From a virus, in IMG/VR virus record IMGVR_UViG_3300045988_079610: a stretch of DNA of 64,000 bases; one strand, 5' to 3'. Shown here in pieces: positions 1 to 60,187 of this stretch (positions are counted from its first letter, which is position 1; each line of letters begins with the position of its first letter). Both the position numbers and the translations under genes were made by a program. Under the pieces are notes generated by a model that had not been told where the DNA came from, ran no database searches, and saw only the letters and a program-made list of their open reading frames with translations.

Positions 1-3000
1 AACAAGAAACTTATCAAAATGCTTCTGACTATCAAAATGAAGCTTTTGAAAACTTTAAAGCTAAAGGTCCTTTTGATGGAAAGAATTTAACTATGGTTAT
101 TAATACTATTAGAAATAATCAAATAGTTGCTGCTAAAAAAGTAGAAGATAATGGAGGTAATAAAACTGAGCAATATATTGCTAAACTAGAAGCTACAAGT
201 AATATATTAAAAGCTATTTACAAGAAAGTAAAACTTGATATTAATAAGTCAGAATCTGCTAAAGCTTTAATTGAAGCTAATAATGAACTTATTAAAGTAC
301 TTAAAGATAATTCTGTAAATAATGATAATGCTACTAATGAGCAACTTACTGAAATATATGCTGACAAACAAAATGAATTAGAGGATATTGCTAAAAATAA
401 TAATCTTTATTCATTTGATGAATTTAAAGAAGCTGCTATTAATCATCCTGAAGATGTTAATTCTAGAGATGCTAGAACTAATGAAATCTTTAGATGTATG
501 AGAGATATTCTTGCAAATCCTCTTAGTCTTGAAGAAAATCTTTCTCGTTCTAATTTTGATGACATTACAGATGCACTTAATGATTATATGAATCCTAATG
601 TTAAAGATGAACGTATTAATCGTAGTGCTTATAATCCTTTTGACCAAATGAGTTATCAAGAAGAAGCTATGAGTGGTGCTAAACTTAAAGCTTTCTCTGT
701 TACACTCGATACATTCTGTTCTGTATGCAACACTGTTAGACCGATTCTGTCTAAGCCAATTTACGTGGTCTATGACAAGTCAGACTACCAAGACCCTACA
801 ATTATTCAGAAACGTTTCAACGATACAAAGGAGAAGAATTTAAAATCTTCAAAAACTTTTCAAGTTCGTCATACAACTTATGGATGGAGTAATGATAATC
901 GTTGTGCAGCAGGTAAAATACTTACTTCATATAGTTCTCAAACTACTGCTTATATTCTTGATGCAATTAAGAGTGGTGCTATACCTAATGTAAATGATTA
1001 TACATTTGCTGTATTTAAAACTCTTGCTAATATTGGATGTGATTATAAAACATCTATTAGTTATATTATGCAACCTGGAGTTACTGAAATAGTTAATGCT
1101 TATAACGCAAATCATTCTGTATTCAGTGATTATCAAGGTGGTAATCCTATTAATGATGCTATTAAAAATATAGCTAAAAAAATGGGATATAAAGTGACTA
1201 ATAGAACTTCTGTTAAAGAACTTCTTAAAAAGATTGATGAAGATTATCATAAAGAATTTAATAAGATATTTGCTCAAAAAGGAGAAGAAATAACCATTAG
1301 TACAAATTATGATGATATTATTAATCTTCCTATTCTTGTAGGTAAGAATGTCACTAGACTTAAAGGAGAAGGTGAGTTTAAGAACCCCCCCGTAGGAGAT
1401 ATTACAACTAACCTTTTTGATCTTGGTGTAGTATTATCTTTTGGAAAGATTTATACTTCTGCTAAAGAAATAGGTGATATAGCTAGATGTTGTAATCCTG
1501 ATAAATTTGGAGCTAAACAAGATGTTTATACTACAAATAAGATTTTTGATGATGCTGTTGAAATGATTCAAAAGCATTCTGAGCAAGAACCTGATAAGCC
1601 TTATAATAGACCAGCCCTTGTTGTAAATAAAAACGGAAAAGATATTCATATTCTTGAAAGTATTTATCCTGGTCTTACAAATGTAAGTCAAGATAGTAAT
1701 GCTCATGGTATAATTACTGAAAATAGAATTGCTGAATCTTCTTATCCTAATCTTTATAGTTATTTAAAATATGCTTCTGCTACAAGTACTGTAGTAGCTA
1801 AAGCTGTATTGCCTACACAAAATCTTGGTTTTGTAAATCTTCTTAAAGGATTTACTCATAAACTTAATGGTTGGAATGTTAAGCTTACTCCTAAAGCATA
1901 TAAAGAACTTCAATCTTATGCTCTTGGTCATTTTTATAATCAATGTGAATTTGTTCAATATCCTATTGATTATTCTATAGATGAAAATGGTCAAATGAAT
2001 GTTCATCTTAGTGAAAATAGAACTGATGGAGATTTTGAAGCTGAACGTCAAAGAATATATGGTTATAATCAAAATACTTCTTTGACTATTAGACATACAG
2101 TTGAAGAGGATATGTATAAGAAAATAGATAGTAAACATACTTATATTACTCCTGAAGAATATAATGGATTGTCTTCTGAACTTAAAGCTAATTATGAATT
2201 AACCAAAGTTAAAGCTAAAGATGATGTTCCTTTTGAGGTTAAAGATATAAACAATACAACTAATGAAGAAATTAAAGAATTTGCTAAATTTAGTCCTGCT
2301 CAAAAAGTTGCTTGGATAAAGAAGAATTTTGACGATAGTGGTATATTTAGTAAACTTCAAGTTTCTCTTTATAATCCAGCTAGTAGAGGTTATAGAGTCG
2401 GAAGTCAGACTATAGAATATATTGAAGATAATGCTAATCCTAATATTGCTTATCAAGAATTTTATAATGCTTTCTTTGATAATAATCCTCTTGTTGCTAT
2501 TACAGCTTATGATTTAATAAAATATGCTGCTACTGTTGAAGGATTTAAAATGTCTCAAAGAGCTATTACTAAAATTATTGATAATAAAACTTTGATTGGA
2601 GAATTTGGTACTAATGGTACTGGTTTCCAAGATGCAGTTCTTAATAGAATTAATGATTTGGAAATGGCTAATAATCCAATGACTGCTAATGATGCAGATA
2701 ATAAATTCTATGAAGAATATCTTAGAAGTCATCCTAATACTGAAGGTATTAAAACTTATTCTGTAAATAAAAAGAATAATGAAAAATATCATCTTAATAA
2801 TACGTATGCTGATATTGTTACAATAACTATTGATAAAACTCTTGAAAATGAAAGTAAAGAAAAAGCTAAAGATGAATTTGAAGAAAGACTTGAAAAAGTA
2901 GGATTTATTACTAGAAATAGTAATGATAATACTTTTAAAGATAATCAATATGTTAGATTTAAGAGTAAGGCTAGAGGTATTGAAATTTATAAAATTGAAA

Positions 3001-6000
3001 AAATAGATGATAATGAATATATAGCTTATCCTCTTAATAAACTTAATATTAATGAGCATGGTACTTGGTCTGCTAATGAGGATTATAATATACATCCTCG
3101 TAGTGAAACATATCAATATATTATTGCTCAATATAAAACAGATAAAGAAAATGCTAAATTAGATAAAGATTATATAAAAGAACAGATTAATGATTATAGA
3201 GAGAATGAAGGTAATCCTTATTATAATCAAAGAAATAAGAATTATAACATTCCTGCTTTAGATTTTAATCTTGAACAGCTTGCTACTGAAGATGATGGTA
3301 ATGCAGCTTCTATTATTAGACAAAATATTATTAAACATTTTAGTTCTCTTGATAAGTATAAACCTTTAAGAGTTAAAAGTCTTACATTAGGAAGATATAT
3401 TATTAGTACTAATTCTACTAGTACTCAAACTATATCTTTTCCTGATGGAAGTAAACATACTTTTGCTATTACAAAGGAGAATACTAGAAAATATGATAGT
3501 GTTTATCTTAATGATAAAAAGTATACTAAAGAAGAAAGACTTGCTGCTGCTTATCAAATTAAAGACCCTCTTCTTAGAGACTCTTATGTTAAAGCAATAG
3601 AAGATAATCATGTTCATGTTGATAATATATTTAAGATTGTAGAAAATACAGATATTCTTCAAGGAGATGATACTTCTTTTGCAGCTAGCGTTGAAGAATC
3701 AGATTTATCTGCTCTTGAATATATTAATCTTGCTCAAAAAGGTCAAAGAGAAATAAAGACTGGTCTTGATGGAGAAATTTCTCTTGAAGTTCAAGCTACT
3801 CAACAAGCAAAAGTTCAAGGTATAAAACTCAAATATGATGATGTTAGAAATAATGTTGATGATGCTACTAGAATAGTTGCTGAATATGCAATTAAAAAAG
3901 CTCAACAACTTGTTACTAGATTTAATCAATATATTGAAGACCCTCAAAATCCTGGTACATATATTAGTTTAAGTGATGAAAGAATAATAGATGTTATTAA
4001 AGATAATCCTGTTGCTATTAGTAATTTCTTTAAAACACTTAATGAAATAAGTGCTTATAAAGCTAGATTTATAACATATAAGAGTTGTGATATAGCTACA
4101 GATAGTCCTGCTGTTAAGAAGTATGTTGAAGATATTAATGAAGCTTATGATAAAGTTGCATCTTTAAATGCAGATACAGCTAATCATAATCTTATGGAAA
4201 ACTATGTATCTAAACTTAGTACTAATCCTCTTATTAGAGAAGGAGTTTTAGATATTAGTGAAAATTATTATAAGACTTATGGTTCTATGTGGATGTTCCA
4301 TGATATAGCGGAAAATGGTAATCCTGCTCTTCAAAATATTCTTAAAGATGTTTATGGTCATATTGAAGCTAAAAGAATGATGGCACTTAGACAAGTAAGA
4401 GAATTTAAAAATCATATTAAATCAATTATTGATGCTGCTAAAAAAGAAGGTATAACTGTAGATATTAATAAGATTATTGATTCTAGAGGTATATTTGTTC
4501 AAGATTATTCTCAAGAATTTCTTGATAAAATGGAGGAACTTAGAAAAGCTAAAAGAGATGCTGCTAAACTTGGTAAAGGTTATGGTTCTATTGAATATCT
4601 TACAGCTAAAAATAAATATGATCAATATAAAGCTGTATATACTCATCAAGCTGCTAAACAAGATTATTATATTCAAAAAGCTAATCTTGAAAGACTTATG
4701 ATTAAGAATCATCCTAGAATTTATTCTAGATATATGACTCTTCTTTATAGGCAGCTTGATATATATAATTACATGACTGAAAATGGTATTCCTGAAGAGA
4801 AGCAAGAAGAACTTAATAGGATTAACGATGAAATGTTTAATCTTAGAGCTAATACTCAATATTATATCGAAGATGGAATTTCAAAAGAGCGTCCTGCTGA
4901 AGAACCAGACCATGACCCTACTGATTATGAATATTGGTCAAATCCTGAGAATGATTATGAGGCTAGTAGTATATATGATGTGCATGAAGCTAATGTTCTT
5001 AATGATTTCTTAAATAAAATGCACGAGCTTAATAATATGTATTTTGAATATACTCCTAAATACGGATTTGAAGATTTACTTCAAAAGAATCTTAGCATTA
5101 TAAGAACTATTGAAAAGCCTGATGCCAATGGTGTTCCTACTCAGTCTCAAGAAATACTTGAATCAAATCCTGAATATGTAGCTGCTAAAAAATGGATTAA
5201 AGAAAATGCTCAATATGAAATTAAAGCAGGTAAAAATGAAGATGGAAGTTTTGTAAATCCTTTAGCTGATAAGATTATTAAAGCTCTTAATAGACTTAAA
5301 CTTGGTGGTAATGGTAAATCAAGAACTGTAAATAGTATTATGCGTCATGCTAATAATAATGAAGGCATATATGATGCTAATAAAGTTCCTGATGGTACTA
5401 AACTTACTAAAGATGAAATAGATTCTATTCGTATCGAAATGGAAAATCGCTATGGTATAGCTGGTCTTCCTGCTGGTAGTGATAGAGTTATGATTTCTAA
5501 TGCTAAGCCTGATGGTCCTTTACTTAATGCAGCTTTCTATAGTAGATATGGTGGAGGTAAGAAAATTAATACTCCTGAATATATAGATATTATTACTCAA
5601 ATTAATAAGATTCATCAAAAGTATTGGAATCCTATTGATAAAACTGTTAATCTTCAAAATATACCAGATACTGAAGCTGGACATAAAGAACTCAAAAAAC
5701 TTGATGAACTTTATCAAAAACTTCGTCAAATTAGAGCTGCTAATAGTGAAAGTATTGATGAAGAAACTAAAAAATTTAGAGAAAAGTATACTGAATTTAA
5801 AGTTAATACTGAATTAGGTAGAGAACAAGCTAAAGGCATTGTAGGTAAATCTGATGAATTTAGAAAACTTTATCTCAATGTTGTTCTTGAAAAAAGAATT
5901 GATGGTACTATTAGAACTGATGAAAATGGTGTTGCTGTACCTAATAGATTACTTTATGGTTATCTTGCTCTTAAAGAAGACCTTTCAGAAGATGAAAAGA

Positions 6001-8957
6001 ATAGATTTATTGATAAACAAAGACAAGAAGATTTAAATCTTATTGATAAATCATATAAAACTGTTCGTACTAAATATTGGGAAAGAGCTTTAGCTGAAGC
6101 TCATAATCGTAGAGATACTGACCCTTCTTTTGATTATAATGCTTGGTGGAATAGTAATCATGTTTACAATCCTTATACTAGAGAAATGGAACTTCTTCCA
6201 TGTTGGACTACTAAAGCTATAAATCCTGAATATATGGAAGATGGTACTTTCCTTGGTGAATGGATTCCTAAAGCTGGTATGAGAACTAAGAAAGTTAAAG
6301 ATGGTATGACTAAACTTGATGGTCTTGACCAAAAATATTATCTTGAAGACCAAGATATGAGAGATAAAGACTATAAAGATGATGCTTCTCTTGCAACTAA
6401 TTATATAAAAGGTGCTAATAATGGTAAATATGATAATTCAACTCAACTTAATGATAGAGAAAAAGAATTAAGAGATTATATTCAAAATACTCTTATTAAG
6501 ACTGCTGGTAATATTGTTAGTAGAAGATATTTTGAATCAGGACGTGCTCCTCAACGTAGAAAAGCTGATTCTGTTGATGCTAAAATGATTCTTAAAGAAA
6601 CTGGTAAAATGGTTGGAATCGGTGTATCAACTAATAATGGTAAAAAAGATTTTGATGAACATATAGGTTATGATAATGATGTAACTCCTATTATGCCTAT
6701 GCTTAAAGATATAGTAAGTGTCAAAGTTACTAAAGTTGTTAAACCTGAAGAACTTGATGCTGCATTAAAATCTGATTATACTGTTACTCTTGATAGTAAG
6801 AAATTTAAAAAGCCAGAAAGACTTGATTACGAAACAAATGAAGATTATACTAAAGCTTTAGCTGAATATGAAGCAACTCAAGAACTTGTTAAAAAACATA
6901 ATGAAAAAGTTCGTGAAGATAATCTTGATAGAAATTGGATAGATGTTATCAGTGATTATATTAACCAAGCTTCTAGATATAATGCAATTCAAGATAGTAA
7001 GGAAAAACTTTATTGGTTACTTGAAGAACTTAGACATCAACAAGCTTATATTCGTAAGTATGGAGCTACTGGTGATTTAAGACTTGATAGTAGAAGAAGT
7101 ACTGATGATAATAATGTTTATCAAACTTCTACTGATGATAATCTTATTAAGCAATATGAAAATCAACTTAGAAGACTTCTTTGGGACCAATGGAAAGAAC
7201 CTGAAAATCATATGACTCGTTGGGCTAATCAACTTCAAACTTTTACATCTGCTAATTATATGATGCTTAATATACGTGGTGGTATTGCTAACATTACTGT
7301 TGGTATGCAAGGTATATTTGGTGAAGCTATGGCAGGTGACCAATTTAGTGCTAAAGGTTGGAGATGGGGAATTGCTGAATGGCATAAAGGACTTCCTGGT
7401 ATGGCTGCTGGTATGTATGATGAAAAAGCTCATGGTAAAGTAGATGGAGTTATTAAACTTTTTAAAGCTGTTGACTATGATGAAATTACTGGAGTTGTAA
7501 GAAATGCTGGTCTTGCTAAATGGTCTGAAAGAATTAGAAATGCAGGTTTCTCTCCTCAAACTATTACTGAAAACTTTATGCAAAATGGAGTTCTTCTTGC
7601 TATGCTTCATGAACATAAGATTATTACTATTGACAGTGATGATATTAGAGGTATTGGAGCTAGAATTATGAATAAGCGAGAATATTGGAATTATAAAAAG
7701 ATTGGTCTTCTTGCTGAAATTCTTGGTGAAGAACAATTCAATGAATATAAGAAGTTTAAAGAGGAAAAGATGAAAGACCCTAATCTTCTTAAAGATTATG
7801 CTTGGTTTAGAAAAGATTTAGCTACTGATTTTGTTGTTCAGCATTGTAGTTCTAAACAACGTGATGAATATGTAAAGAAACAAAAAGAAGCAAAAGCTAA
7901 AGTAGAAAAAGAATTTGATACTAAGATAGACCTTTATAGTCAAATGGAAGAAAAAGATGGTTATATTCAATTTAAAGAAGGTTCTGACCTTGCTAAACTT
8001 GATGAATTTAGAAGCGATAAAGATGGAGAAGATGTAACAAAATCTTATGCTCTTCTTGGTGAATTTGCTGAAAAAGTTCGTAAGACTAATAACTATATTC
8101 ATGGTGTATATAATCGTCAAGGTATGGCTTATATTGAAAAGACTTGGTATGGTAGTCTTGTAATGCAATATCATAAACATCTTCCAATGGGTCTTATGAA
8201 ACGTTATCATACTAGAGGTAATTGGAATGAATTTAGAAACTCTGTAAATAAAGGTATGATTCCTAGTTGTATAGACTTTTTAAAGCTAGATATTGATTTA
8301 GTTAAACATGATGCTGGTTTATCAGATGATGAAGTAACTACTCTTAAGGGTGTTCAAAATATTCTTACTCATAGTTATCAATTACTTACTCATCTTAAAA
8401 CAACTTGGGAAATAATGCCTGATTATGATAAAGCTAATATAAAGAGAAACCTTGGAGATTTGATAGGAGTTCTTGGAGGTATAATGGGTTCTATTGCACT
8501 TATAGCTTTAGGTGCTGATGATGATAAAAATAAAGGTGCATTTGAAAATATAATGGCAAATCTTGCTTTATATGAAAGTGATAGACTTACTTCTGAATCA
8601 TTTATGTACAATCCTATAGGTATGCAAACTGAACTTAAAACTCTTATGAGTACTCCTCTTGCTGCACAAAGTGTTATAAGTGATGGACTTAAAGCTATTT
8701 ATGAAATAGGTGGTTTTATAATGCAAGGTGATAGTTTTGACCCAATTTATAAAAGTGGTCGATTTGCTGGAGAAAATAAGCTTAGTGTTTATGTTCAAAG
8801 ACGTATTCCTATGTGGAATGGTATTAGACAAGTTATAGATTCCCCTGATAATAATCATTATTATAAAGTTGGTGATACTGCTTGTAGTCTTATTAATACT
8901 AAAGGTATTGGTAATTGGATTGGTGGTAGAGGTTATGATTATGGTAAAGAAGATTAG
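1..8957 (+). CDS. giant virion-associated/ejected protein, 5'-partial (terminal giant ORF of the late block)
   Basis: Frame 3 is open from the first base of the window (QETYQNASDYQ... precedes the first in-window ATG at 93) to TAG 8955-8957. NNT-biased codons throughout. Gly/hydrophobic membrane-like segment near the C-terminus (LGDLIGVLGGIMGSIALIALG). No catalytic motif recognised by eye. Confidence 0.85.
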   Translation, partial: QETYQNASDYQNEAFENFKAKGPFDGKNLTMVINTIRNNQIVAAKKVEDNGGNKTEQYIAKLEATSNILKAIYKKVKLDINKSESAKALIEANNELIKVLKDNSVNNDNATNEQLTEIYADKQNELEDIAKNNNLYSFDEFKEAAINHPEDVNSRDARTNEIFRCMRDILANPLSLEENLSRSNFDDITDALNDYMNPNVKDERINRSAYNPFDQMSYQEEAMSGAKLKAFSVTLDTFCSVCNTVRPILSKPIYVVYDKSDYQDPTIIQKRFNDTKEKNLKSSKTFQVRHTTYGWSNDNRCAAGKILTSYSSQTTAYILDAIKSGAIPNVNDYTFAVFKTLANIGCDYKTSISYIMQPGVTEIVNAYNANHSVFSDYQGGNPINDAIKNIAKKMGYKVTNRTSVKELLKKIDEDYHKEFNKIFAQKGEEITISTNYDDIINLPILVGKNVTRLKGEGEFKNPPVGDITTNLFDLGVVLSFGKIYTSAKEIGDIARCCNPDKFGAKQDVYTTNKIFDDAVEMIQKHSEQEPDKPYNRPALVVNKNGKDIHILESIYPGLTNVSQDSNAHGIITENRIAESSYPNLYSYLKYASATSTVVAKAVLPTQNLGFVNLLKGFTHKLNGWNVKLTPKAYKELQSYALGHFYNQCEFVQYPIDYSIDENGQMNVHLSENRTDGDFEAERQRIYGYNQNTSLTIRHTVEEDMYKKIDSKHTYITPEEYNGLSSELKANYELTKVKAKDDVPFEVKDINNTTNEEIKEFAKFSPAQKVAWIKKNFDDSGIFSKLQVSLYNPASRGYRVGSQTIEYIEDNANPNIAYQEFYNAFFDNNPLVAITAYDLIKYAATVEGFKMSQRAITKIIDNKTLIGEFGTNGTGFQDAVLNRINDLEMANNPMTANDADNKFYEEYLRSHPNTEGIKTYSVNKKNNEKYHLNNTYADIVTITIDKTLENESKEKAKDEFEERLEKVGFITRNSNDNTFKDNQYVRFKSKARGIEIYKIEKIDDNEYIAYPLNKLNINEHGTWSANEDYNIHPRSETYQYIIAQYKTDKENAKLDKDYIKEQINDYRENEGNPYYNQRNKNYNIPALDFNLEQLATEDDGNAASIIRQNIIKHFSSLDKYKPLRVKSLTLGRYIISTNSTSTQTISFPDGSKHTFAITKENTRKYDSVYLNDKKYTKEERLAAAYQIKDPLLRDSYVKAIEDNHVHVDNIFKIVENTDILQGDDTSFAASVEESDLSALEYINLAQKGQREIKTGLDGEISLEVQATQQAKVQGIKLKYDDVRNNVDDATRIVAEYAIKKAQQLVTRFNQYIEDPQNPGTYISLSDERIIDVIKDNPVAISNFFKTLNEISAYKARFITYKSCDIATDSPAVKKYVEDINEAYDKVASLNADTANHNLMENYVSKLSTNPLIREGVLDISENYYKTYGSMWMFHDIAENGNPALQNILKDVYGHIEAKRMMALRQVREFKNHIKSIIDAAKKEGITVDINKIIDSRGIFVQDYSQEFLDKMEELRKAKRDAAKLGKGYGSIEYLTAKNKYDQYKAVYTHQAAKQDYYIQKANLERLMIKNHPRIYSRYMTLLYRQLDIYNYMTENGIPEEKQEELNRINDEMFNLRANTQYYIEDGISKERPAEEPDHDPTDYEYWSNPENDYEASSIYDVHEANVLNDFLNKMHELNNMYFEYTPKYGFEDLLQKNLSIIRTIEKPDANGVPTQSQEILESNPEYVAAKKWIKENAQYEIKAGKNEDGSFVNPLADKIIKALNRLKLGGNGKSRTVNSIMRHANNNEGIYDANKVPDGTKLTKDEIDSIRIEMENRYGIAGLPAGSDRVMISNAKPDGPLLNAAFYSRYGGGKKINTPEYIDIITQINKIHQKYWNPIDKTVNLQNIPDTEAGHKELKKLDELYQKLRQIRAANSESIDEETKKFREKYTEFKVNTELGREQAKGIVGKSDEFRKLYLNVVLEKRIDGTIRTDENGVAVPNRLLYGYLALKEDLSEDEKNRFIDKQRQEDLNLIDKSYKTVRTKYWERALAEAHNRRDTDPSFDYNAWWNSNHVYNPYTREMELLPCWTTKAINPEYMEDGTFLGEWIPKAGMRTKKVKDGMTKLDGLDQKYYLEDQDMRDKDYKDDASLATNYIKGANNGKYDNSTQLNDREKELRDYIQNTLIKTAGNIVSRRYFESGRAPQRRKADSVDAKMILKETGKMVGIGVSTNNGKKDFDEHIGYDNDVTPIMPMLKDIVSVKVTKVVKPEELDAALKSDYTVTLDSKKFKKPERLDYETNEDYTKALAEYEATQELVKKHNEKVREDNLDRNWIDVISDYINQASRYNAIQDSKEKLYWLLEELRHQQAYIRKYGATGDLRLDSRRSTDDNNVYQTSTDDNLIKQYENQLRRLLWDQWKEPENHMTRWANQLQTFTSANYMMLNIRGGIANITVGMQGIFGEAMAGDQFSAKGWRWGIAEWHKGLPGMAAGMYDEKAHGKVDGVIKLFKAVDYDEITGVVRNAGLAKWSERIRNAGFSPQTITENFMQNGVLLAMLHEHKIITIDSDDIRGIGARIMNKREYWNYKKIGLLAEILGEEQFNEYKKFKEEKMKDPNLLKDYAWFRKDLATDFVVQHCSSKQRDEYVKKQKEAKAKVEKEFDTKIDLYSQMEEKDGYIQFKEGSDLAKLDEFRSDKDGEDVTKSYALLGEFAEKVRKTNNYIHGVYNRQGMAYIEKTWYGSLVMQYHKHLPMGLMKRYHTRGNWNEFRNSVNKGMIPSCIDFLKLDIDLVKHDAGLSDDEVTTLKGVQNILTHSYQLLTHLKTTWEIMPDYDKANIKRNLGDLIGVLGGIMGSIALIALGADDDKNKGAFENIMANLALYESDRLTSESFMYNPIGMQTELKTLMSTPLAAQSVISDGLKAIYEIGGFIMQGDSFDPIYKSGRFAGENKLSVYVQRRIPMWNGIRQVIDSPDNNHYYKVGDTACSLINTKGIGNWIGGRGYDYGKED
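1383..1399 (-). repeat. GC-motif copy 1 (coding)
   Basis: + strand AACCCCCCCGTAGGAGA, read in the giant ORF as N-P-P-V-G-D. Confidence 0.8.
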
Positions 8958-8975
8958 CCTGCCCGTAGAAAGACT
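8955..8975 (-). repeat. GC-motif copy 2 (gene boundary)
   Basis: + strand TAGCCTGCCCGTAGAAAGACT. Its TAG is the stop codon of the giant ORF. Confidence 0.85.
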
Positions 8976-9072: not shown

Positions 9073-9143
9073 TGGAGCATCGTATAATGGTAGTACAGAA
9101 GATTTTGGTTCTTCTAGCATAGGTTCGATTCCTATTACTCCAA
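9073..9143 (+). tRNA. trnQ: tRNA-Gln (anticodon UUG)
   Basis: Hand-folded 71-nt cloverleaf. Acceptor TGGAGCA/TACTCCA (one C-A mismatch, U1-A72 as in bacterial tRNA-Gln). D stem GTAT/GTAC. Anticodon stem GAAGA/TCTTC with loop TT-TTG-GT. T arm ATAGG-TTCGATT-CCTAT. Confidence 0.85.
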
Positions 9144-9231
9144 CTAATAGTAAAATTTAAGTTGTTAATTATAATGTTAGGTTAAGTGGTTAAAAATAGG
9201 CGGTGTTAAATGGTAATTATCCCCATGTTCG

Positions 9232-9267
9232 TCCCAAGGTTATCGTGATGATAATCTTGGGATTTTT
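9232..9267 (+). terminator. intrinsic terminator after the tRNA
   Basis: TCCCAAGG-TTATC / GATAA-T-CTTGGGA stem followed by TTTTT. Confidence 0.75.
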
Positions 9268-11987: not shown

Positions 11988-12173
11988 ATGATATTAATTA
12001 AAGTTAAATCGCTATTTAACTTATTGATTATCAAGTAGTTATAAACTATCTATATATATATATAATATAGCATTACTTTTACTGATAACTATTACAAACA
12101 TACTCATTATCTTTAAAACTAGCAATATTATCAATAGAATAATTACTATAATAAAGATAATTTAATAATTCAG

Positions 12174-12194
12174 CCTCTCTACGGGGGGTTTCTA
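12174..12194 (+). repeat. GC-motif copy 3 (intergenic)
   Basis: CCTCTCTACGGGGGGTTTCTA. Confidence 0.85.
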
Positions 12195-12257: not shown

Positions 12258-12278
12258 TATCCCGCCCGTAGGAAGACT
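12258..12278 (-). repeat. GC-motif copy 4 (intergenic, inverted partner of copy 3)
   Basis: + strand TATCCCGCCCGTAGGAAGACT, 63 nt from copy 3. Confidence 0.85.
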
Positions 12279-12283
12279 TGAGA

Positions 12284-17033: not shown

Positions 17034-17675
17034 TTATTTACTTTTATGTTTAACAAACTCTTTTCTAGAAGCATAATCTTCAGGAGACATAGCAATTACA
17101 TTTTCTTTATGTTCACTAGTAACAGGAATTTCTTTATTATCAGCGGATAAATTATATACATATCCATCTTTATCTTTACAAAGATGCTCAAAACCATAAG
17201 CATCTATAATTTCAAAAGTAACATCTTTTCTACTAGTTTCTTCAATAAGAATTAATTTACTTGTCTTAACAAGAGTAGAAATATCAATAAAAGATGTTTC
17301 TAGCTCCCCCGTAGAAGGTATCGTAGGTTCACCTTCTAACCAAGCTAATAACATATTGCAATAATTACCTAAATCTTGAATAGTATCAAACATAGTTTCA
17401 TCTTCAACATTAGGATTATTATAACCATTAAAATCTTCTTCTATAAAATGAATCAAACGATTAAGTTTATCATACATTCTAGCTAGACCATATCTATAGC
17501 CTAATTTATTACAACCTTTATTGAAAGCATTATCGTAATCAGCATTTTTTTTAGCCATAAGATTAAGCATCTTATTTTGCTGGTCACGTAAAGCAACAAC
17601 TTCAGGAGTAATAAGTTCTTTTGGAACTACTCCATTAAGAGCAGCTTTCCAATAATTTAAATCATTTTCTGTCAT
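17034..17675 (-). CDS. two-domain protein, N-terminal DUF1599-like domain (tentative)
   Basis: KKNADYDNAF...GLARMYDKLNRL resembles DUF1599 as recalled. GC-motif copy 5 lies in the mid-protein linker. Confidence 0.45.
   Translation of the reverse strand: MTENDLNYWKAALNGVVPKELITPEVVALRDQQNKMLNLMAKKNADYDNAFNKGCNKLGYRYGLARMYDKLNRLIHFIEEDFNGYNNPNVEDETMFDTIQDLGNYCNMLLAWLEGEPTIPSTGELETSFIDISTLVKTSKLILIEETSRKDVTFEIIDAYGFEHLCKDKDGYVYNLSADNKEIPVTSEHKENVIAMSPEDYASRKEFVKHKSK
17301..17321 (-). repeat. GC-motif copy 5 (coding)
   Basis: + strand TAGCTCCCCCGTAGAAGGTAT, read as P-S-T-G-E-L. Confidence 0.8.
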
Positions 17676-19948: not shown

Positions 19949-20021
19949 ATCGTTTCTGATTAATTATATTGCGGACATAATAAAACCGCTCACGTAAAAG
20001 AAAAACTGCATAAATGCGAAT

Positions 20022-20047
20022 ATTTCCTACGGGGCGGTTATAGTGAC
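20022..20047 (+). repeat. GC-motif copy 6 (gene boundary, TATAGTGAC tail)
   Basis: ATTTCCTACGGGGCGGTTATAGTGAC, ending 4 nt from the stop of 20051..20401. Confidence 0.85.
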
Positions 20048-22551: not shown

Positions 22552-23695
22552 AACTAAGAGTTTCTTTAATAAATTTATCTATTTCATCTTTAGTGTATTT
22601 ATCATGCAAATCTGCAAAGTCTTTACATTCATAATTACTAAGACCAAATTCGCCACGAGTAATAAATAAATAAGGAATATTATATGTTTCTAAAAGATAT
22701 TCAGCTCCTTCTCTACCAGTTCTGTCAAAATCTAGAAAACTAAGTATCATTCCATCATTAGATAATTTCTTTTTTATCCATTCATATTCGTTAGCTTTAA
22801 GTCTATAATTCTCACTAGGAAGATTAATCACTCCTATTTTTAGAAGTTTTCCAGTCCCCCCGTAAAGAGGCTTGTTTGTTAAATGACTTCCTAAACTAAG
22901 TCTATCTTTACTACTTTTAGTAATTATAATATAATCATAATCATCTAATTCAAGATTAGGTAGACCTTCAAGAACATTACAATTAGTAATAAACTTTAAA
23001 TCAATATGTCTATTCCTAAGAGGAAAATATAGTTTAATTAAATAAATACCTTGTTTATTTTGTCCAAGCATATAAGCATAACAAGGGTCTTTACTAACAT
23101 ATCTATATTTAGGTTCAGGATTAGAACTTCTATTGATATAATATTGGTCAACAGGAATTACAAAATGAGTATTAAGATAAGCAAGATTTACATTCCATTT
23201 ATCCCATATTTTTTTATCTTCTTTATTCCATGAACGTGGAACAAGTTCAATAATAGCTTTACGATCTTTACTTTTAAATAAAGCATTTTTTATATCATCA
23301 TCTGTAGAATAATCATGTTCACGATTGTCTATAACATCTGCAAATGTTCTATAAATATGTTTTAATATAAAATAAAAATCTTGTTTGTTATCAGTACTAA
23401 TAGGTCTTTCATAAGCAATACTAAGAACATAAGCTACAACTCCATATACATCTTCAAAGAAACCAAAACCTCCAAAATCTCTAACTTTAAGTCTACCTTT
23501 TCTATTATAAGCAATACCCATACTACCATCAGTATCATCATCTCTAAATACAGATTTTATGAGATTATTATGTTCAATACAATTTTGAACAGTTTCTATA
23601 GGAATATTTAGATATTTGCTTACAATATCTTCTTGACTTATACGAGATTCAATAAATGCTTTAGTTAAATGAGCAGTATTTATATTACGTTTCAT
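22466..23695 (-). CDS. DNA primase (Toprim domain)
   Basis: Toprim-like ...SFLDFDRTGREGAEY (DxD). Position next to replication genes. Confidence 0.7.
   Translation of the reverse strand: MKRNINTAHLTKAFIESRISQEDIVSKYLNIPIETVQNCIEHNNLIKSVFRDDDTDGSMGIAYNRKGRLKVRDFGGFGFFEDVYGVVAYVLSIAYERPISTDNKQDFYFILKHIYRTFADVIDNREHDYSTDDDIKNALFKSKDRKAIIELVPRSWNKEDKKIWDKWNVNLAYLNTHFVIPVDQYYINRSSNPEPKYRYVSKDPCYAYMLGQNKQGIYLIKLYFPLRNRHIDLKFITNCNVLEGLPNLELDDYDYIIITKSSKDRLSLGSHLTNKPLYGGTGKLLKIGVINLPSENYRLKANEYEWIKKKLSNDGMILSFLDFDRTGREGAEYLLETYNIPYLFITRGEFGLSNYECKDFADLHDKYTKDEIDKFIKETLSYVELRYRKENLCNSDAYYERLSNFDLPY
22852..22873 (-). repeat. GC-motif copy 7 (coding, TTTACGG variant)
   Basis: + strand CAGTCCCCCCGTAAAGAGGCTT, read as P-L-Y-G-G-T-G in the primase. 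Confidence 0.7.
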
Positions 23696-27436: not shown

Positions 27437-28849
27437 TTAATCTACAATACAATAATCAGAATTATTATCAATTTTAACATCTATATCTTTTTTATTAACA
27501 ATAACATGATTAGATGATAGTTGTTTATCATTGATTTCTTTTTCTTCTAATGTATTTTCACAATAAAGACTATATAATATAATAGGTATATTGAACTTAC
27601 ATTTACTTAATCTATATATATAAGATTTTATATCATCACATAGACTTGACGTAATTATTAAAACATCTACATCTATATTAAGTTCTTTATCAGGACTATT
27701 TGTTGTAGATATAATGTTTATCTTTCCAAGATTAAATAATTGTTGGATAAGTTTCTTTTGGTTCGTTACACCCATTATTTTTTGCTTACCTTTCTTAGCT
27801 CCAGTTTTATAATAAATAGGATTACCATCTTTATCTATAGCTGGAATTGATTCTAATTTGTCATGAAAACTTTTACATATTTCTTTATTATATTTAATGT
27901 TTATATTATTAGTTAATTCATCTGCAAAATCTGCAAACTTATTTATTATAAGAATCTTTTTATCTTTATAACTATCAATAATATCTATAATAGCATTAAT
28001 CTTATTTGAATAATTAGCAAGAAGTCTAGCTCTTTTTCTAATCATTTCATAAGTAGAATTAGCTCTTTCTTTTATTGCTATAGGATTATAAAGATTATCT
28101 ATTTGTCGATTATATTCTGTACTCATATCTAGATATTCATTCCAACCATTATCTCTAGCAAGTTTATCACAATATGCCATACTAGAAGCATTATTTGTGT
28201 TATTACCAGACATAGCAATTTTTATATTATCTAGACCTCCAAATATATTAAGTGACATTCTAATATTATCATTATAATATTGAAGAAGTTTAGCATCATT
28301 AGTATCATCTTTAATAGTGATAGGAATACGATACTCTTCTACGGGGGGGTTAGTACGAATATTATCGACATCATTTTGCTTAAACTCTTTAATAATAGGA
28401 CAACAAGAATAAAAACTATCTTTAGTTCTACCATCAAGAGATTTAGTAATAATAACTAATTTATATATGCTTTTTTCTAATATTCCTAAATGAACAAAAG
28501 TAAAACTAATAGGATTGTAAATAATAGTAAGAGTAGGTCTATACAAATTAATATTATCAGCAACCCAACTATCAGTTAATACATGAATTTGTCCTTTATT
28601 AATCAACTTTAGAAAAATACTATCATAATTATTCTTTTGATTAGTAAGATATTCTTTGATATAATCTTTATCTTCAAAGTCTTTAACTAGAATAAGTACA
28701 TTACAAGTTGGACTTCTATTAAATAATCTAGGAAGAAGAAGATAAATAGGTCTAACACTATCTAAAGGATGAGGTATTAGAAAACTTCCATTACCATTAC
28801 GAGCATTCCATCTTTCGATAGCATCATTAAACATTTCTTCTTGTGTCAT
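27437..28849 (-). CDS. SF2 helicase-like protein (tentative)
   Basis: C-terminal half resembles the helicase C domain (KILIINKFADFADEL ... INIISTTNS ... VLIITS). No clear Walker A seen. Confidence 0.45.
   Translation of the reverse strand: MTQEEMFNDAIERWNARNGNGSFLIPHPLDSVRPIYLLLPRLFNRSPTCNVLILVKDFEDKDYIKEYLTNQKNNYDSIFLKLINKGQIHVLTDSWVADNINLYRPTLTIIYNPISFTFVHLGILEKSIYKLVIITKSLDGRTKDSFYSCCPIIKEFKQNDVDNIRTNPPVEEYRIPITIKDDTNDAKLLQYYNDNIRMSLNIFGGLDNIKIAMSGNNTNNASSMAYCDKLARDNGWNEYLDMSTEYNRQIDNLYNPIAIKERANSTYEMIRKRARLLANYSNKINAIIDIIDSYKDKKILIINKFADFADELTNNINIKYNKEICKSFHDKLESIPAIDKDGNPIYYKTGAKKGKQKIMGVTNQKKLIQQLFNLGKINIISTTNSPDKELNIDVDVLIITSSLCDDIKSYIYRLSKCKFNIPIILYSLYCENTLEEKEINDKQLSSNHVIVNKKDIDVKIDNNSDYCIVD
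28333..28354 (+). repeat. GC-motif copy 8 (coding)
   Basis: ACTCTTCTACGGGGGGGTTAGT, antisense to the gene, read as N-P-P-V-E-E. Confidence 0.8.
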
Positions 28850-31126: not shown

Positions 31127-31686
31127 ATAATATTAATTTCATATCCATTATAATTATTATCTTTACTAGCATTATACCATTTAATTAGATGATTACAAAA
31201 TTCTTTATATTTATTATCATCTATGTATTTAATAAAAGGAGAATAACTAACACAATATCCTCTAATATTACCATTATCCTTAGTAATGTATAGTTTATCA
31301 GTTTTATTACTTATATCTGTTATAGATAAAAATAGTTTAGCTGCATCACCAAGTAATAATATTTTTACAGCATGAGTATTAACAATATCTCTAATTGTAT
31401 GTACAATACATCTATTAATAATATTATTATTTAGAGGACATTTATCAGTCAATTTACATCTAATAAGTGGAACTATAAAATAATCATTTAACCCCCCCGT
31501 AGAAGGACTTAATGCTTCATTTATTATTTCCACATATTTACTAAACGTCATTCCTTTATTCTTATAAGCATCATAATCAACATTAGGTACAACTATTATT
31601 TTACCATAAAGAGGATTACCAACACCTTTAAGACAATGACATTTATCATTAAATAGTCTTAGAGGACAATCTTTACATACATTCAT
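31123..31686 (-). CDS. uracil-DNA glycosylase-like protein (family 4-like, divergent)
   Basis: N-terminal CKDCPL...GVGNPLYGKIIVVPN resembles family 4 UDG, but the GEAPG motif is not conserved. Confidence 0.5.
   Translation of the reverse strand: MNVCKDCPLRLFNDKCHCLKGVGNPLYGKIIVVPNVDYDAYKNKGMTFSKYVEIINEALSPSTGGLNDYFIVPLIRCKLTDKCPLNNNIINRCIVHTIRDIVNTHAVKILLLGDAAKLFLSITDISNKTDKLYITKDNGNIRGYCVSYSPFIKYIDDNKYKEFCNHLIKWYNASKDNNYNGYEINII
31488..31510 (-). repeat. GC-motif copy 9 (coding)
   Basis: + strand TTAACCCCCCCGTAGAAGGACTT, read as S-P-S-T-G-G-L. Confidence 0.8.
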
Positions 31687-34446: not shown

Positions 34447-34574
34447 TTTACAAAAAGTTTAATTGTTAATAATATTAATTACATCATCAATAAGATGAAT
34501 ATTAGTAGTTTGACTCGGTTTCGCACCATAAGCCGTAGTATAAGCTACACTTAGTCAAACTTAAAGTGACATTA

Positions 34575-34598
34575 TTAAGCTCCCCCGTAGAGGAACTT
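34575..34598 (-). repeat. GC-motif copy 10 (forms the ORF C-terminus and stop)
   Basis: + strand TTAAGCTCCCCCGTAGAGGAACTT, read as K-F-L-Y-G-G-A-stop. Confidence 0.8.
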
Positions 34599-34916
34599 AA
34601 CAATGTCAACATTTTCTTCTTCTATTTTCTTACAAGCATTAAGAATAACATCAATACCTTTATGTCTAACTTTAATTATATCCATAATTACAGTAATCAT
34701 ATCATGTTGACTTAATCTCATAAGATGATAAATTGTTTTAAAACCTTTACGAGTATTAAGAGGAAAGTTATAAGGAATAATATAACCTCTACGATGTGGA
34801 GGATATTTATAATTAGCTTTAGAAATATAATTTCCACAACTTATAACTTCTCCTCCAAACTCAGGTTTAGCACAATGTTTTAAATCATAATTATAAGCAC
34901 AAGTACTACATAACAT
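34575..34916 (-). CDS. hypothetical Cys-rich protein
   Basis: 113-aa ORF with CSTCAY...C...C at the N-terminus. Confidence 0.6.
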   Translation of the reverse strand: MLCSTCAYNYDLKHCAKPEFGGEVISCGNYISKANYKYPPHRRGYIIPYNFPLNTRKGFKTIYHLMRLSQHDMITVIMDIIKVRHKGIDVILNACKKIEEENVDIVKFLYGGA

Positions 34917-37739: not shown

Positions 37740-37886
37740 AACAATATAAAAATTAAATAGGTGGTGTGCATAAGCAAATTAAATACGAATTGTATTAATT
37801 GTATTAACTCTTAAACACTAAAGCGAATACTTAGTTTGACCTCCACCTATTATATTAATTAATCTATTGCAAAGATAAACAATAAT

Positions 37887-37910
37887 ATCTTTCTACGGGC
37901 AGGTTATAGC
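37887..37910 (+). repeat. GC-motif copy 11 (gene boundary, TATAGC tail)
   Basis: ATCTTTCTACGGGCAGGTTATAGC, flanked by the 7-bp direct repeat CAATAAT. Confidence 0.85.
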
Positions 37911-41495: not shown

Positions 41496-41561
41496 TTTCA
41501 TCTTCATCTTTAATAATTTTATTTTATGCACAATTATCCCCATGTCATATTTAATATATTA

Positions 41562-41624: not shown

Positions 41625-41874
41625 GTCATTATATTTATCATCATCTTCTTTAATAGATTTATAATTATTATATTGACTTTTATTAGTATTAATATTAGCT
41701 CTATTATCAACATTATTATAACAATAATCATCATTATTATCTATTATATCTTCATTTTATCTCATTATTATTATTTCATTATTATTTCATTAGTATTATC
41801 TATATAAATAGTATGTGTTTTGTCACTATAAGTATTAGAAGTTCTAGTCGAAGCTTGAAGTATTAGATGTCTAT

Positions 41875-41897
41875 AAATCCCGCCCGTAGAAGGACTT
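41875..41897 (-). repeat. GC-motif copy 12 (intergenic)
   Basis: + strand AAATCCCGCCCGTAGAAGGACTT. A TATAGTGAC-type sequence lies about 45 nt away at 41823-41838 (minus strand). Confidence 0.85.
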
Positions 41898-43736: not shown

Positions 43737-43750
43737 GACTAATTCATCAA

Positions 43751-43776
43751 CCTCTCTACGGGGAGGCTATAGTGAC
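43751..43776 (+). repeat. GC-motif copy 13 (gene boundary, TATAGTGAC tail)
   Basis: CCTCTCTACGGGGAGGCTATAGTGAC, flanked by the 7-bp direct repeat GACTAAT. The track's GTG start at 43772 lies inside it. Confidence 0.85.
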
Positions 43777-47523: not shown

Positions 47524-47812
47524 AGGTCAAACAATAAACTCTTCTACGGGGGGGTTTACAGATGATAGTATTAAAGTTGCTATTAATGATTTACGTAAAG
47601 CAAATATTAAACTTATACAATTAGATTATGAAAAAGATATTAATAAAAATCTTAGACAAATTATTGCAAATGATAGTGTACTTGCAGAACAAGCTAGACA
47701 AAGATATTTGGTACTGGATAGGTCGTGCAAGAAAATAAAGAAACAACGTAATATTGGAGTAGGTGTTGCTATTGGCAGCATACTACTCCTTATTATTTCA
47801 TTAATCAAGTAA
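47450..47812 (+). CDS. lipoprotein with C-terminal TM anchor (unimolecular-spanin-like)
   Basis: Signal plus lipobox-like LIMIVLLSC, C-terminal GVGVAIGSILLLIISLI. Overlaps the previous gene out of frame by 74 nt. Confidence 0.5.
   Translation: MQKLLKLKHLIMIVLLSCSTSLSSRGQTINSSTGGFTDDSIKVAINDLRKANIKLIQLDYEKDINKNLRQIIANDSVLAEQARQRYLVLDRSCKKIKKQRNIGVGVAIGSILLLIISLIK
47536..47559 (+). repeat. GC-motif copy 14 (coding)
   Basis: AAACTCTTCTACGGGGGGGTTTAC, read as N-S-S-T-G-G-F-T. Confidence 0.8.
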
Positions 47813-52947: not shown

Positions 52948-54291
52948 ATGTTTGTATTTCGTAATACTTTAGGTTTTTACCAACATAAAAGACTTCAAAG
53001 TCCTGTTGGTGATATTGATTTTACTGGAGATGGTGGTGGTGTTACACCTCCTCCTTCAAATCCTCAAAATTCTCCTGATATAAATGGAGGTAAAGGAAAT
53101 GACATTAATGATAATGGAAATTCTGACAAAGATAAGGATAAAGATAATCCTGATGGTAATACAGAACCTCCTGCTAATGGTGGAGAAGGAAAAGGTGAAA
53201 AAGATAACAACCCTTCTACGGGGGAGCTTGAAGAAGGAACTAACATCGAATTAGATGGTGTGACTTATACTGTCGATAAAGATGGAAATGTTGTAGATAC
53301 TGATGGCAAAATTTTTAAAGAAGCTAAGGATGTTCAAGAATGGCTTAAAACTTTTAATGTAGATAATCAAAATCCTGAAGATAAAGAATTATCTATTGCT
53401 TCTATTCAGAAAGCTATTGGTGAAGAAATCGTTGATGAAAAAGGTCAACCTGTTGAATTTACAAATGATGTAGAGGGAGTTAAATCTTATATAGATAATG
53501 TTATTGCTCTTCGTTCTAATGAACTTCAACAAGCAGCAGTTAATAAGGTATTTAATGACAATCCTATTCTTGCTCAATTCGCTAATTATTTAGCTGTTAA
53601 TGGTTCTCCTAAAGGTTTTGGAGAAATGCCTGATAGAAGTGGTATCAAACTTGATGCTAATAATGAAGAACAACAAATTGCTATTATTAAAGCCGCTGCT
53701 AAAGAATTTGGAAATACTACACTTAATGATAATTATATTAAGTATTTGAAAGATGGTGGTGGACTTTATGATGAAGCTAAACTACAACTCCAAAATCTTC
53801 AAAATGCTGACAAACAACGTAATGAGGAATATGCTCGTAGAGCAGAAGCTCAACGTCAAGAAGAAGAAGAAGCTACTAATGCTTATTGGGAAAATGTTCA
53901 TGAAAAACTTAATTCTCATAAAATTGGCGAATATCAACTTCCTGAATCTTTTGTTCGTGAAGTAAATGGTCAAAAAATTACTACTACTATTGACGATTTC
54001 TTCAATTATATTTATAGAGCTACAGAAGACGAAGATGGAAATTATACAACTGCTTATCAAAAAGACTTAATGTCTAGAACAGCAGATGATAATATTAATG
54101 AACAACTTATTGCTGCATGGCTGACTTTTACAGGAGGAAGTTATAAAGACCTTGTGAATATGGCTGTTAGAGAAAAAGAAGTTAAAACTCTAAGACTTAA
54201 AGCTAAAGAAAATGATGGTCGTAAAACTGTTGTAATTACTAAACCAGCAAATGCTAACAAAACAATAGATATAGATAATCTAGTGTTTTAA
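52948..54291 (+). CDS. head-assembly/scaffold-like protein (tentative)
   Basis: Low-complexity G/N/D/K/P N-terminus then helical E/K/Q-rich body. Lies directly upstream of the MCP. Confidence 0.6.
   Translation: MFVFRNTLGFYQHKRLQSPVGDIDFTGDGGGVTPPPSNPQNSPDINGGKGNDINDNGNSDKDKDKDNPDGNTEPPANGGEGKGEKDNNPSTGELEEGTNIELDGVTYTVDKDGNVVDTDGKIFKEAKDVQEWLKTFNVDNQNPEDKELSIASIQKAIGEEIVDEKGQPVEFTNDVEGVKSYIDNVIALRSNELQQAAVNKVFNDNPILAQFANYLAVNGSPKGFGEMPDRSGIKLDANNEEQQIAIIKAAAKEFGNTTLNDNYIKYLKDGGGLYDEAKLQLQNLQNADKQRNEEYARRAEAQRQEEEEATNAYWENVHEKLNSHKIGEYQLPESFVREVNGQKITTTIDDFFNYIYRATEDEDGNYTTAYQKDLMSRTADDNINEQLIAAWLTFTGGSYKDLVNMAVREKEVKTLRLKAKENDGRKTVVITKPANANKTIDIDNLVF
53209..53232 (+). repeat. GC-motif copy 15 (coding)
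   Basis: AACCCTTCTACGGGGGAGCTTGAA, read as N-P-S-T-G-E-L-E. Confidence 0.8.
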
Positions 54292-58699: not shown

Positions 58700-58733
58700 G
58701 ATGATTAGTCTTCCTACGGGCGGGCTAATCATC
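58700..58733 (+). repeat. GC-motif copy 16 presented in the loop of an 11-bp hairpin
   Basis: GATGATTAGTC-TTCCTACGGGC-GGGCTAATCATC. Motif core is 58708-58730. Confidence 0.85.
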
Positions 58734-59620: not shown

Positions 59621-60187
59621 ATGAATGATAATATAAATAACCCCCCCGTAGAAGGTATAGATGCTTCTACACTTAATGCTGTTAATTCTCCATATAATGA
59701 AGTTTATGTTGAGAATGATGAATATGATGCAGGTACTAATATAGATGTTGAAGTTGTATATCTTACTATTCCTACTAAATGGATTCCTGTTTATCGTAAA
59801 TTACTTAGTCTTGTAGCTAATGGAGGTAAAGCTATTCTTGATGATTGTAATTATGGTTGTAAAGGTAATGGTAGTATTGTATTTAATTGTTGGAATATAT
59901 TTCAATCTGCTTGTGCTGCCCATACTGAAGGAAAAGAAGATGAAGCAGAATTGTTTATAAATTATGTTTCTAAACAAATAGATGCTTATAATAAAGCAAA
60001 TAGTATTAATATAAACGATAGTAGTTTTAAATATACTATTACTCCTGATGGTAAAGTTAAAGCTGATGGTGTTATTGAAGATAATACTGTAAGTTTAAGT
60101 CTTGATAAAGAAAATAAGGAAGCTTATGACAATTATCAAGCAAATAAAGATAATGGTAAAATTTATGTTGAACAAGATAACAATTAA
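59621..60187 (+). CDS. hypothetical protein
   Basis: 188-aa ORF. GC-motif copy 17 encodes residues 6-12. Confidence 0.65.
   Translation: MNDNINNPPVEGIDASTLNAVNSPYNEVYVENDEYDAGTNIDVEVVYLTIPTKWIPVYRKLLSLVANGGKAILDDCNYGCKGNGSIVFNCWNIFQSACAAHTEGKEDEAELFINYVSKQIDAYNKANSININDSSFKYTITPDGKVKADGVIEDNTVSLSLDKENKEAYDNYQANKDNGKIYVEQDNN
59636..59658 (-). repeat. GC-motif copy 17 (coding)
   Basis: + strand AATAACCCCCCCGTAGAAGGTAT, read as N-N-P-P-V-E-G-I. Confidence 0.8.

Follow-up and report, generated by a model that had tools for sequence, protein, structure and literature searches.

Dispersed ~20-nt strand-polar DNA motif of Intestiviridae phages and its possible role in starting DNA synthesis

Why should unrelated proteins of one phage carry the same short Gly/Pro peptides, spelled each time with the same nucleotides? 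The question is raised by a stretch of viral DNA of 64,000 nt (IMG/VR record IMGVR_UViG_3300045988_079610; hereafter the window, i.e., the whole stretch that was analysed), belonging to a crAss-like phage with 27.9% G+C. An earlier examination of the letters alone (the original prediction) had noticed a G-rich motif written into nine open reading frames (ORFs) and attributed it to selection or insertion acting on DNA, the proteins merely tolerating a flexible insert. Comparison with five related genomes establishes the motif, at the level of sequence, as a genome-wide, strand-polar DNA signal of the Intestiviridae composed of a pyrimidine run, TAYG and a G run. Judging from codon usage and alignments, the Gly/Pro/Ser/Thr peptides are a by-product of this conserved ~20-nt DNA signal.

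In the window, TACGGGGGG occurs seven times against an expectation of 0.00, and CTACGGGGG, with at most one mismatch, 16 times against 0.46; a looser core reveals 18 copies, half of them (nine) in ORFs and nine outside ORFs. All nine motif-bearing ORFs named by the original prediction contain the copy at the predicted place and in the predicted frame: six in the sense orientation (four read as TCT-ACG-GGG, two as TAC-GGG-GGN) and three antisense, all read as AAC-CCC-CCC-GTA-GRR. The motif was nevertheless taken to be too short, and nine further copies, situated outside ORFs or possessing variant cores, were missed. Hence, the unit was underestimated: the conserved stretch spans ~20 nt, not 9-10, and can be written as A.CCYTYC-TACG-GGGGRG(Y)T.

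The closest annotated relative of the window is the uncultured crAss-like phage cr8_1 (Crassvirales, Intestiviridae, Obtuvirinae), with 78% DNA identity across the polymerase-UDG-helicase stretch and a syntenic gene order. The same motif family was found in this and four other genomes, so that the six genomes, including the window, harbor 18-31 copies each. The core YTAYGGGG(G) is constant across genomes, and the flanks are lineage-specific, changing in concert within each lineage. The five relatives are as follows:

cr8_1, human faeces: 27 sites, consensus ACATACCTTTTACGGGGSGGCTAGA
cr271_1, pig faeces: 19 sites, consensus ACATYTCTTCTACGGGGGAGCT
ctcc615, mouse: 19 sites, consensus ACCTTCTACGGGGGRGGT
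crAss002, cultured on Bacteroides xylanisolvens: 29 sites, consensus CACTCCTTTAYGGGGGAA
p-crAssphage (prototypical), metagenome-assembled genome: 31 sites, consensus TCCATCCTCYACGGGGRGTCTA

The motif is also present at orthologous places in 12 IMG/VR loci around the primase gene, found by a search with a primase alignment; a related-locus search with the single helicase protein gave no match. An IMG/VR scan with a 14-mer returned mostly chance matches along with crAss-like contigs, and the window's own contig was not recovered. No description of the motif was found in the searchable literature, queried by literal sequence and by topic and including the p-crAssphage phage-plasmid study and the large comparative study of crAss-like genomes; the ~20-nt signal apparently has not been described previously.

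The window opens with a giant ORF (93-8957, plus strand, 2954 residues). The replication genes form a minus-strand block at ~9.7-41.2 kb, and the structural genes a plus-strand block from 42.6 kb onward. The 18 copies are located as follows (span, strand, copy, context):

1383..1402, minus: copy 1394-, in the giant ORF 93-8957 (+), antisense, NPPVGD; orthologous copy in cr8_1, cr271_1 and ctcc615
8956..8975, minus: copy 8967-, intergenic variant TACGGGCAGG, 10 nt past the giant-ORF stop, pointing back into the giant ORF
12172..12191, plus: copy 12180+, intergenic, arm of a convergent inverted pair with copy 12270-
12259..12278, minus: copy 12270-, intergenic variant TACGGGCGGG, second arm of the pair with 12180+
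17302..17321, minus: copy 17313-, in ORF 17034-17675 (-), sense, IPSTGEL, just past the PHROG 1485 match (residues 34-116)
20020..20039, plus: copy 20028+, intergenic TACGGGGCGG, antisense to the flanking genes; orthologous copy in the closest IMG/VR relatives (L003-L005)
22853..22872, minus: copy 22864-, in the DnaG-family primase ORF 22466-23695 (-), sense, PLYGGT, ~830 nt from the start
28332..28351, plus: copy 28340+, in the SNF2-type helicase ORF 27437-28849 (-), antisense, NPPVEE, ~509 nt from the start
31490..31509, minus: copy 31501-, in the family-4 UDG ORF 31123-31686 (-), sense, SPSTGGL, residues 60-66
34567..34608, minus: copy 34589-, at the C-terminus of ORF 34575-34916 (-), FLYGGA-stop, tip of a 19-bp hairpin (-28.2 kcal/mol)
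37886..37905, plus: copy 37894+, intergenic variant TACGGGCAGG, antisense to the flanking genes
41877..41896, minus: copy 41888-, variant TACGGGCGGG between the divergent gene modules, beside AT-rich 9/12-nt repeats
43749..43768, plus: copy 43757+, intergenic, sense, CCTCTC-TACG-GGGAGG, perfect 6-bp hairpin
47537..47556, plus: copy 47545+, in the lipoprotein-like ORF 47450-47812 (+), sense, NSSTGGF, 12 residues past the lipobox Cys
53209..53228, plus: copy 53217+, in ORF 52948-54291 (+), the gene preceding the major capsid gene, sense, NPSTGEL
58707..58726, plus: copy 58715+, intergenic variant ATTAGTCTTCC-TACG-GGCGGGCTAAT, sense
59639..59658, minus: copy 59650-, in ORF 59621-60187 (+), antisense, NPPVEG, residues 7-12; orthologous copy in cr8_1
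61633..61652, plus: copy 61641+, intergenic degenerate CTCTTC-TACGTGGGGGTT, sense

The placement just after the giant ORF recurs in cr8_1 (3399+), cr271_1 (66216-) and ctcc615 (12776-). On folding, the pair 12180+/12270- gives a long hairpin (-41.7 kcal/mol, z -4.1). As to the host proteins, annotated orthologues and PHROG 12622 agree with the labels primase, SNF2-type helicase and UDG (the last being backed by a family-4 fold as well), while the DUF1599-like label is unsupported, the ORF in question having no Pfam match at E<=0.01. Pfam gave no match for any of the nine host ORFs, and PHROGs matched only two of the nine. For the lipoprotein predicted to be spanin-like, the lipobox and the C-terminal hydrophobic stretch were indeed seen: ORF 47450-47812 (+) encodes 120 residues with a lipobox (LLSC) and the C-terminal stretch VGVAIGSILLLIISLI, a layout of the unimolecular-spanin type.

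That the constraint acts on DNA and not on the peptide, as had been proposed, is borne out by several lines of evidence. Outside the motif, the codons it employs are rare in the window genes (GGG, 8 of 965 Gly codons; CCC, 7 of 506 Pro; ACG, 20 of 1023 Thr), whereas within 12 nt of the motif they prevail (9/12, 6/10 and 5/7, respectively), and more than half of all GGG codons in the window genes belong to the motif. In codon alignments, third positions of the motif codons are invariant in 12-14 orthologues, compared with 0.58-0.83 for neighboring codons. The comparison of synonymous sites inside and outside the motif, suggested along with the original prediction, gave the same picture: the mean majority fraction at third positions is 0.94 inside vs. 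0.74 outside in the helicase, and 0.88 vs. 0.77 in UDG. The reading frame itself is free to change. The crAss002 primase site is shifted by one base relative to the frame, being read as CCT-TTA-CGG-GGG (PLRG) instead of CTT-TAC-GGG-GGG (LYGG), and one UDG homologue reads its site as FYGG instead of STGG. Over the six genomes, in-ORF copies occupy the three sense frames 12, 10 and 33 times and the antisense frames 6, 0 and 31 times; every permitted frame is used, the sole unused antisense frame being that which places TAG in frame. In p-crAssphage, the loop position is T or C (TAC/CAC), and six of the nine antisense in-ORF copies use CAC. In one frame, CAC removes the TAG given by the complement of TAC; hence, the degenerate position seemingly fits coding constraints.

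For the copies examined, the proteins, in turn, accommodate the signal at tolerant places, as anticipated for loops and linkers. The AlphaFold model of UDG (predicted local distance difference test score, pLDDT, 92) displays the family-4 UDG fold with a template modelling (TM) score of 0.80 to 4zbx, and its motif residues 60-66 comprise the C-terminal end of helix 50-63 and part of the coil 64-69, adjoining an indel hot spot. The copies in the primase and ORF 17034 are found just beyond the domain matched by PHROGs. The alignments with orthologues indicate that the motif reached these loops and linkers by substitution and was kept.

This bears on the idea, put forward in the original prediction, of a short mobile or inserted in-frame element comparable to the palindromic elements of Rickettsia or to mitochondrial GC clusters. 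In favor of it are the nucleotide identity across unrelated genes and the location of copies in loops, linkers and termini, as well as the giant-ORF site, the only one with gaps, namely in the two most distant genomes (7 residues in p-crAssphage and 2 residues in crAss002). The orthologous sites tell otherwise. A tblastn comparison of the nine host ORFs with the five genomes put the motif, for each orthologue found, at matching codons of the alignment, and within one subfamily the codons occupied are identical in orthologues of four genera; between the window and cr8_1, the helicase, UDG and primase are gap-free at the motif. The primase and helicase sites retain the same codons, mostly without indels, across three subfamilies, where protein identity falls to ~47% and ~28%, respectively. 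The helicase site (~+500 nt, antisense) is kept in all six genomes. The primase site (~+830 nt, sense) is kept in the window, cr8_1, cr271_1, crAss002 (in the other frame) and p-crAssphage and is decayed in ctcc615; the site of ORF 52948 is kept in cr271_1 and crAss002 and decayed in cr8_1. Single substitutions set the decayed copies apart (TACAGGGG in the ctcc615 primase and TACGGAGAAG in the cr8_1 orthologue of ORF 52948), and the p-crAssphage orthologue of this ORF has neither the motif nor a gap (TDAEHGLEEG vs. NNPSTGELEEG). All 60 UDG homologues, down to 43% identity, possess (S/F/L)-T-G-(G/E) at the motif place, directly before the indel hot spot.

Nor do the copies have target-site duplications, terminal repeats or an associated transposase or homing enzyme. 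Like the motif, Rickettsia elements and yeast mitochondrial GC clusters are G+C-rich sequences set in A+T-rich genomes, and some are translated in frame, but those elements are 30-150 bp long, palindromic and polymorphic in presence or absence by insertion; the motif is ~20 nt, positionally conserved and ordered. Against the ~100-150 bp and the palindrome of the Rickettsia element stand ~20 nt with only 3-5 consistent stem positions; against the mobile yeast clusters, mostly intergenic and lacking positional order, stand sites conserved across genera, regularly spaced and alternating in strand. Half of the window copies are intergenic, and since random insertion does not give regular spacing together with alternating strands, the ordered placement also disfavors insertion, and this explanation is highly improbable.

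The placement was assessed for the site sets of the six genomes by comparing the coefficient of variation (CV) of the gaps on each strand with that of random placement. Intergenic DNA accounts for 24-50% of the sites vs. 8-12% of the genome, i.e., a 3-5-fold enrichment. In-ORF sites are not concentrated in long ORFs (29/92, the share of these ORFs in coding DNA being 0.32). Copies use intergenic DNA where it is available and otherwise ORFs, by substitution and in any frame compatible with the protein. On either strand, a site recurs about every 5-7 kb. In cr8_1, crAss002 and p-crAssphage, the gap CV of each strand is in the range 0.31-0.45 (P<=0.003), and so is that of the denser strand in the remaining three genomes; the sparser strands of these three (7-9 sites) show a CV of 0.58-0.84, which is not significant. 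Neighboring sites alternate in strand in 22 of 26 cases in cr8_1 (p=2.7e-4), 24 of 28 in crAss002 (p=9e-5) and 21 of 30 in p-crAssphage (p=0.02). Such alternation follows automatically if each strand bears a regular lattice and the two lattices are equally dense; hence, the per-strand regularity is taken as the primary feature. All 17 pairs no more than 600 bp apart are inverted and none is direct; 12 pairs lie within 150 bp (8 divergent, 4 convergent). Relative to local genes, ~55% of the copies are sense and ~45% antisense. A protein site read regardless of orientation was discarded as a candidate, for it would not produce strand alternation.

This order points to an agent which handles the two DNA strands separately, moving along one or acting on it, and needs a signal at bounded intervals on both. 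Given that the flanks vary together within a phage lineage, a phage gene probably encodes whatever reads the signal. The favored reading, held tentatively with a probability of about 0.3, is that the sites are strand-specific start points for DNA synthesis, by priming of the kind known for the single-strand initiation (ssi) signals ssiA/ssiB, or by nicking. The motif would be exposed on one strand during replication and serve as a start of synthesis specific for that strand, acting like ssiA/ssiB of RSF1010 or like a site-specific nick yielding a 3' end. Its G/C-rich core could give a stable primer-template hybrid in a genome of 28% G+C, and the motif could be read by the phage's own primase of the DnaG family or by a replication protein associated with it.

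The ssiA/ssiB signals of the IncQ plasmid RSF1010, read by the primase RepB', are like the motif in being replicon-specific, strand-polar, tens of nucleotides long and inverted on opposite strands, each serving one strand; in oriV of RSF1010, they form an inverted pair on opposite strands. The same layout is seen here in inverted copies on opposite strands and in the close inverted pairs, including those by the RepL genes of p-crAssphage, where the divergent pairs 28083-/28177+ and 95751-/95869+ stand just upstream of two RepL genes and are followed by hairpins of the sequence GCGNAGC, an unusually stable class of DNA mini-hairpin. In the window, copy 41888- is located in the inter-module gap beside AT-rich iteron-like repeats. 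RSF1010 has a single ssi pair at one origin with stable hairpins, whereas the motif occupies 18-31 sites genome-wide, many of them in ORFs, and forms a weak, G-T-dependent hairpin. For nicking, the localized nick sites of T5, phiKMV-like and tf-like phages offer a parallel in their conserved asymmetric G+C-rich consensus repeated at defined places of the genome; these sites are defined by physical nicks, few, and in T5 confined to one strand, while the motif is present on both strands and known from sequence alone.

Several observations weigh against start sites for synthesis. The hairpin of the motif strand is weak, depends on G-T pairs (poor in DNA) and is hardly seen in cr8_1; a stable hairpin is the rule in known ssi signals. 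Characterised replisome primases recognise trinucleotides, not 20-mers. The adjacency to RepL is seen in one genome only, and GCGNAGC is absent from the window and ctcc615, occurring four times in cr8_1 and once in cr271_1, nowhere adjoining a motif copy. The spacing and strand pattern, moreover, suits a Chi-like signal or polar roadblocks about as well. A still more tentative proposition is that Intestiviridae start the replication or repair of their DNA at hard-wired sites, sequence-specific and strand-polar, which recur every ~5-7 kb per strand and are so strongly conserved as to be embedded in essential genes across subfamilies. If true, this would be a mode of genome 'punctuation' described for no phage, and other families of Crassvirales may carry analogous lineage-specific signals.

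The Chi-like possibility is that the motif marks phage DNA as self: host AddAB, or a phage SF1 helicase with a PD-(D/E)XK nuclease, would enter at ends or breaks, read one strand and be attenuated or switched to recombination. Reading of one strand entails properly oriented sites at bounded intervals on both strands, and the layout conforms to that of Chi (RecBCD/AddAB), i.e., strand-polar, frequent on both strands, in and between genes and independent of transcription, with interleaved orientations and close pairs always inverted. The regular spacing of ~5-7 kb per strand is near that of Chi, roughly 5 kb in E. coli; the recognised strand is G-rich, as in known Chi sequences, and sense (leading-strand) copies are in slight excess. 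The phages encode RecT, a PD-(D/E)XK nuclease, an SF1 helicase annotated as 'exodeoxyribonuclease' and a Gam-like nuclease inhibitor, although the latter would make protection by Chi redundant. Furthermore, known Chi sequences are 5-8 nt long and host-specific, being set by the host enzyme, whereas the motif is ~20 nt with flanks following the phage lineage and is not the same in all phages of a host genus: crAss001 and crAss002 alike grow on Bacteroides yet have no common core (CTTCTGGAG vs. CTCCTTTAYGGGGGAA). A Chi-like role is, on balance, rather unlikely.

Polar roadblocks or genome organisers bound by a phage DNA-binding protein, silencing or punctuating transcription on both strands in the manner of stoperators, e.g., in a persistent or plasmid-like state, appear unlikely. 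In form, stoperators are the closest match: a dispersed asymmetric site with 18-31 copies, intergenic and in ORFs, with lineage flanks, is reminiscent of the sites of the L5 gp71 repressor in cluster A mycobacteriophages, which are asymmetric, dispersed over intergenic gaps and ORFs and present in dozens (13-14 bp, ~24-36 copies). Strand alternation shows that orientation matters, and a phage-plasmid lifestyle, which would suit such a role, has been proposed for p-crAssphage (PMC10983915). Stoperators, however, have a single orientation with respect to transcription, while the orientations of the motif are interleaved; no repressor candidate was identified, and sense sites in the essential giant ORFs would need to be bypassed during lytic growth.

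Decidedly unlikely is a signal in transcription or RNA, be it a G-start promoter of the giant phage RNA polymerase or a small RNA hairpin (pyrimidine run, UAYG, G run) for processing or stability. The size of the motif, its constant core with lineage flanks and its G run are as in promoters of single-polymerase phages, and sense intergenic copies stand 9-360 nt upstream of gene starts. The motif strand also folds better than its complement: given a loop of 3 nt, and with G-U/G-T allowed, pairing at the first 3-5 positions of the stem is possible in every or almost every copy, whichever of the six genomes is taken, and the inverted pairs form long stems, possible sites for RNase III. Most window copies fold with energies between -6 and -28 kcal/mol (one, -3.9), most cr8_1 copies with only -1 to -9. 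The stem depends on G-T/G-U pairs and is weak in cr8_1; there is no covariation of stem positions within any of the six genomes. Since ~45% of the copies are antisense to genes, many of them deep in ORFs, a promoter or terminator is unlikely. Strand-specific RNA sequencing of crAss001 follows ORF orientation (PMC8375218), and in phi14:2 early transcripts lack a common upstream motif, the middle promoters being sigma-70-like (10.1101/2020.03.07.982082).

Narrower candidates of this kind were also rejected. Promoters of the T7 group are similar in length (~20 nt), in the constant core plus lineage positions, in the downstream G run and in number (15-30 copies, some in upstream ORFs), but all of them point with the genes, a requirement that the motif fails in the six genomes; no T7-type polymerase gene is annotated in the related genome records examined. 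A Bacteroides -7/-33 promoter was dropped, since by inspection of five genomes only the cr8_1 variant resembles TAnnTTTG. An intrinsic terminator was rejected with the T-run absent at the motif and half of the copies antisense, the terminator scan having caught only copy 12180+; ordinary terminators do exist elsewhere in the window. A UNCG tetraloop (cUACGg) was abandoned: crAss002 has UAUG in the loop and p-crAssphage CACG, and the pair that closes it is variable. The motif fails a defining feature of each class that could be tested here, although dispersed cis-acting phage motifs are already known as a kind.

GCGNAGC runs (GCGAAGC, GCGTAGC, GCGGAGC) were encountered ~5-15 nt past some copies in p-crAssphage (6045, 28061, 28190-28200, 44936-44946 and 95889) and past some copies in crAss002 (4225-4230, 47861 and 86194-86204). 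As they accompany some copies only in these two genomes, these mini-hairpins were dropped as a part of the unit.

No viruses of the human gut are more abundant than the crAss-like phages, whose replication, persistence and gene control are largely unknown. The signal is among the most strongly constrained non-coding features of their genomes, from the phages of mouse, pig and human to the prototypical crAssphage, and can be used as a compact diagnostic signature of lineages. It explains clusters of rare codons and the conserved STGG and NPPVE peptides in unrelated proteins, which should not be taken as functional protein motifs. Since crAss002 is in culture, the motif provides an exact, testable handle on priming or nicking as opposed to Chi-like or roadblock roles.

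Outside the Intestiviridae, the TAYGGGG motif is absent from crAss001 (Steigviridae, MH675552.1, bases 1-100000). This phage has a dispersed 9-mer of its own, CTTCTGGAG, found 27 times over the two strands, at 23-fold the expected frequency and mostly in ORFs. The 9-mer shares a CTTCT...GG part with the motif of Intestiviridae and may be an analogous signal. A different, ~35-nt G+C-rich element, ATGGCCACAAGGGCGAGAGGTGTTCCGAAAT, was found in cr127_1 (Crevaviridae, MT774393.1, bases 1-50000) in eight copies on both strands, six of which are arranged as three inverted pairs with a separation of 170-560 bp. Dispersed G+C-rich signals specific to a lineage may be general in Crassvirales.

In the window itself, AT-rich tandem repeats of 9 and 12 nt, of the ATTATTAGT and TATTATTAC types, occur at 41437-41640 and 42027-42080. 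They fill part of the ~1.4-kb gap between the divergent replication and structural modules, adjoining copy 41888-, and the cumulative GC skew reverses in the region of this gap, which is a possible candidate for an origin or a regulatory region. The search of Rfam at gathering thresholds matched a tRNA-Gln alone; this tRNA-Gln(UUG), at 9073-9144, is situated at the convergent junction 3' of the giant ORF. Just past it, hairpin-plus-T-run terminators are present on both strands, at 9231-9263 (+), 9340-9309 (-) and 9955-9926 (-); hence, ordinary intrinsic termination is used by the phage there.

Between positions 12000 and 33000, the identity of the window to its closest IMG/VR relatives L003, L004 and L005 is patchy, amounting to 72-97% per 500-bp bin with abrupt shifts, a pattern that suggests mosaic exchange among related phages. 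The motif copies were considered as recombination joints or mosaic breakpoints and rejected as such, since the identity transitions do not track the sites.

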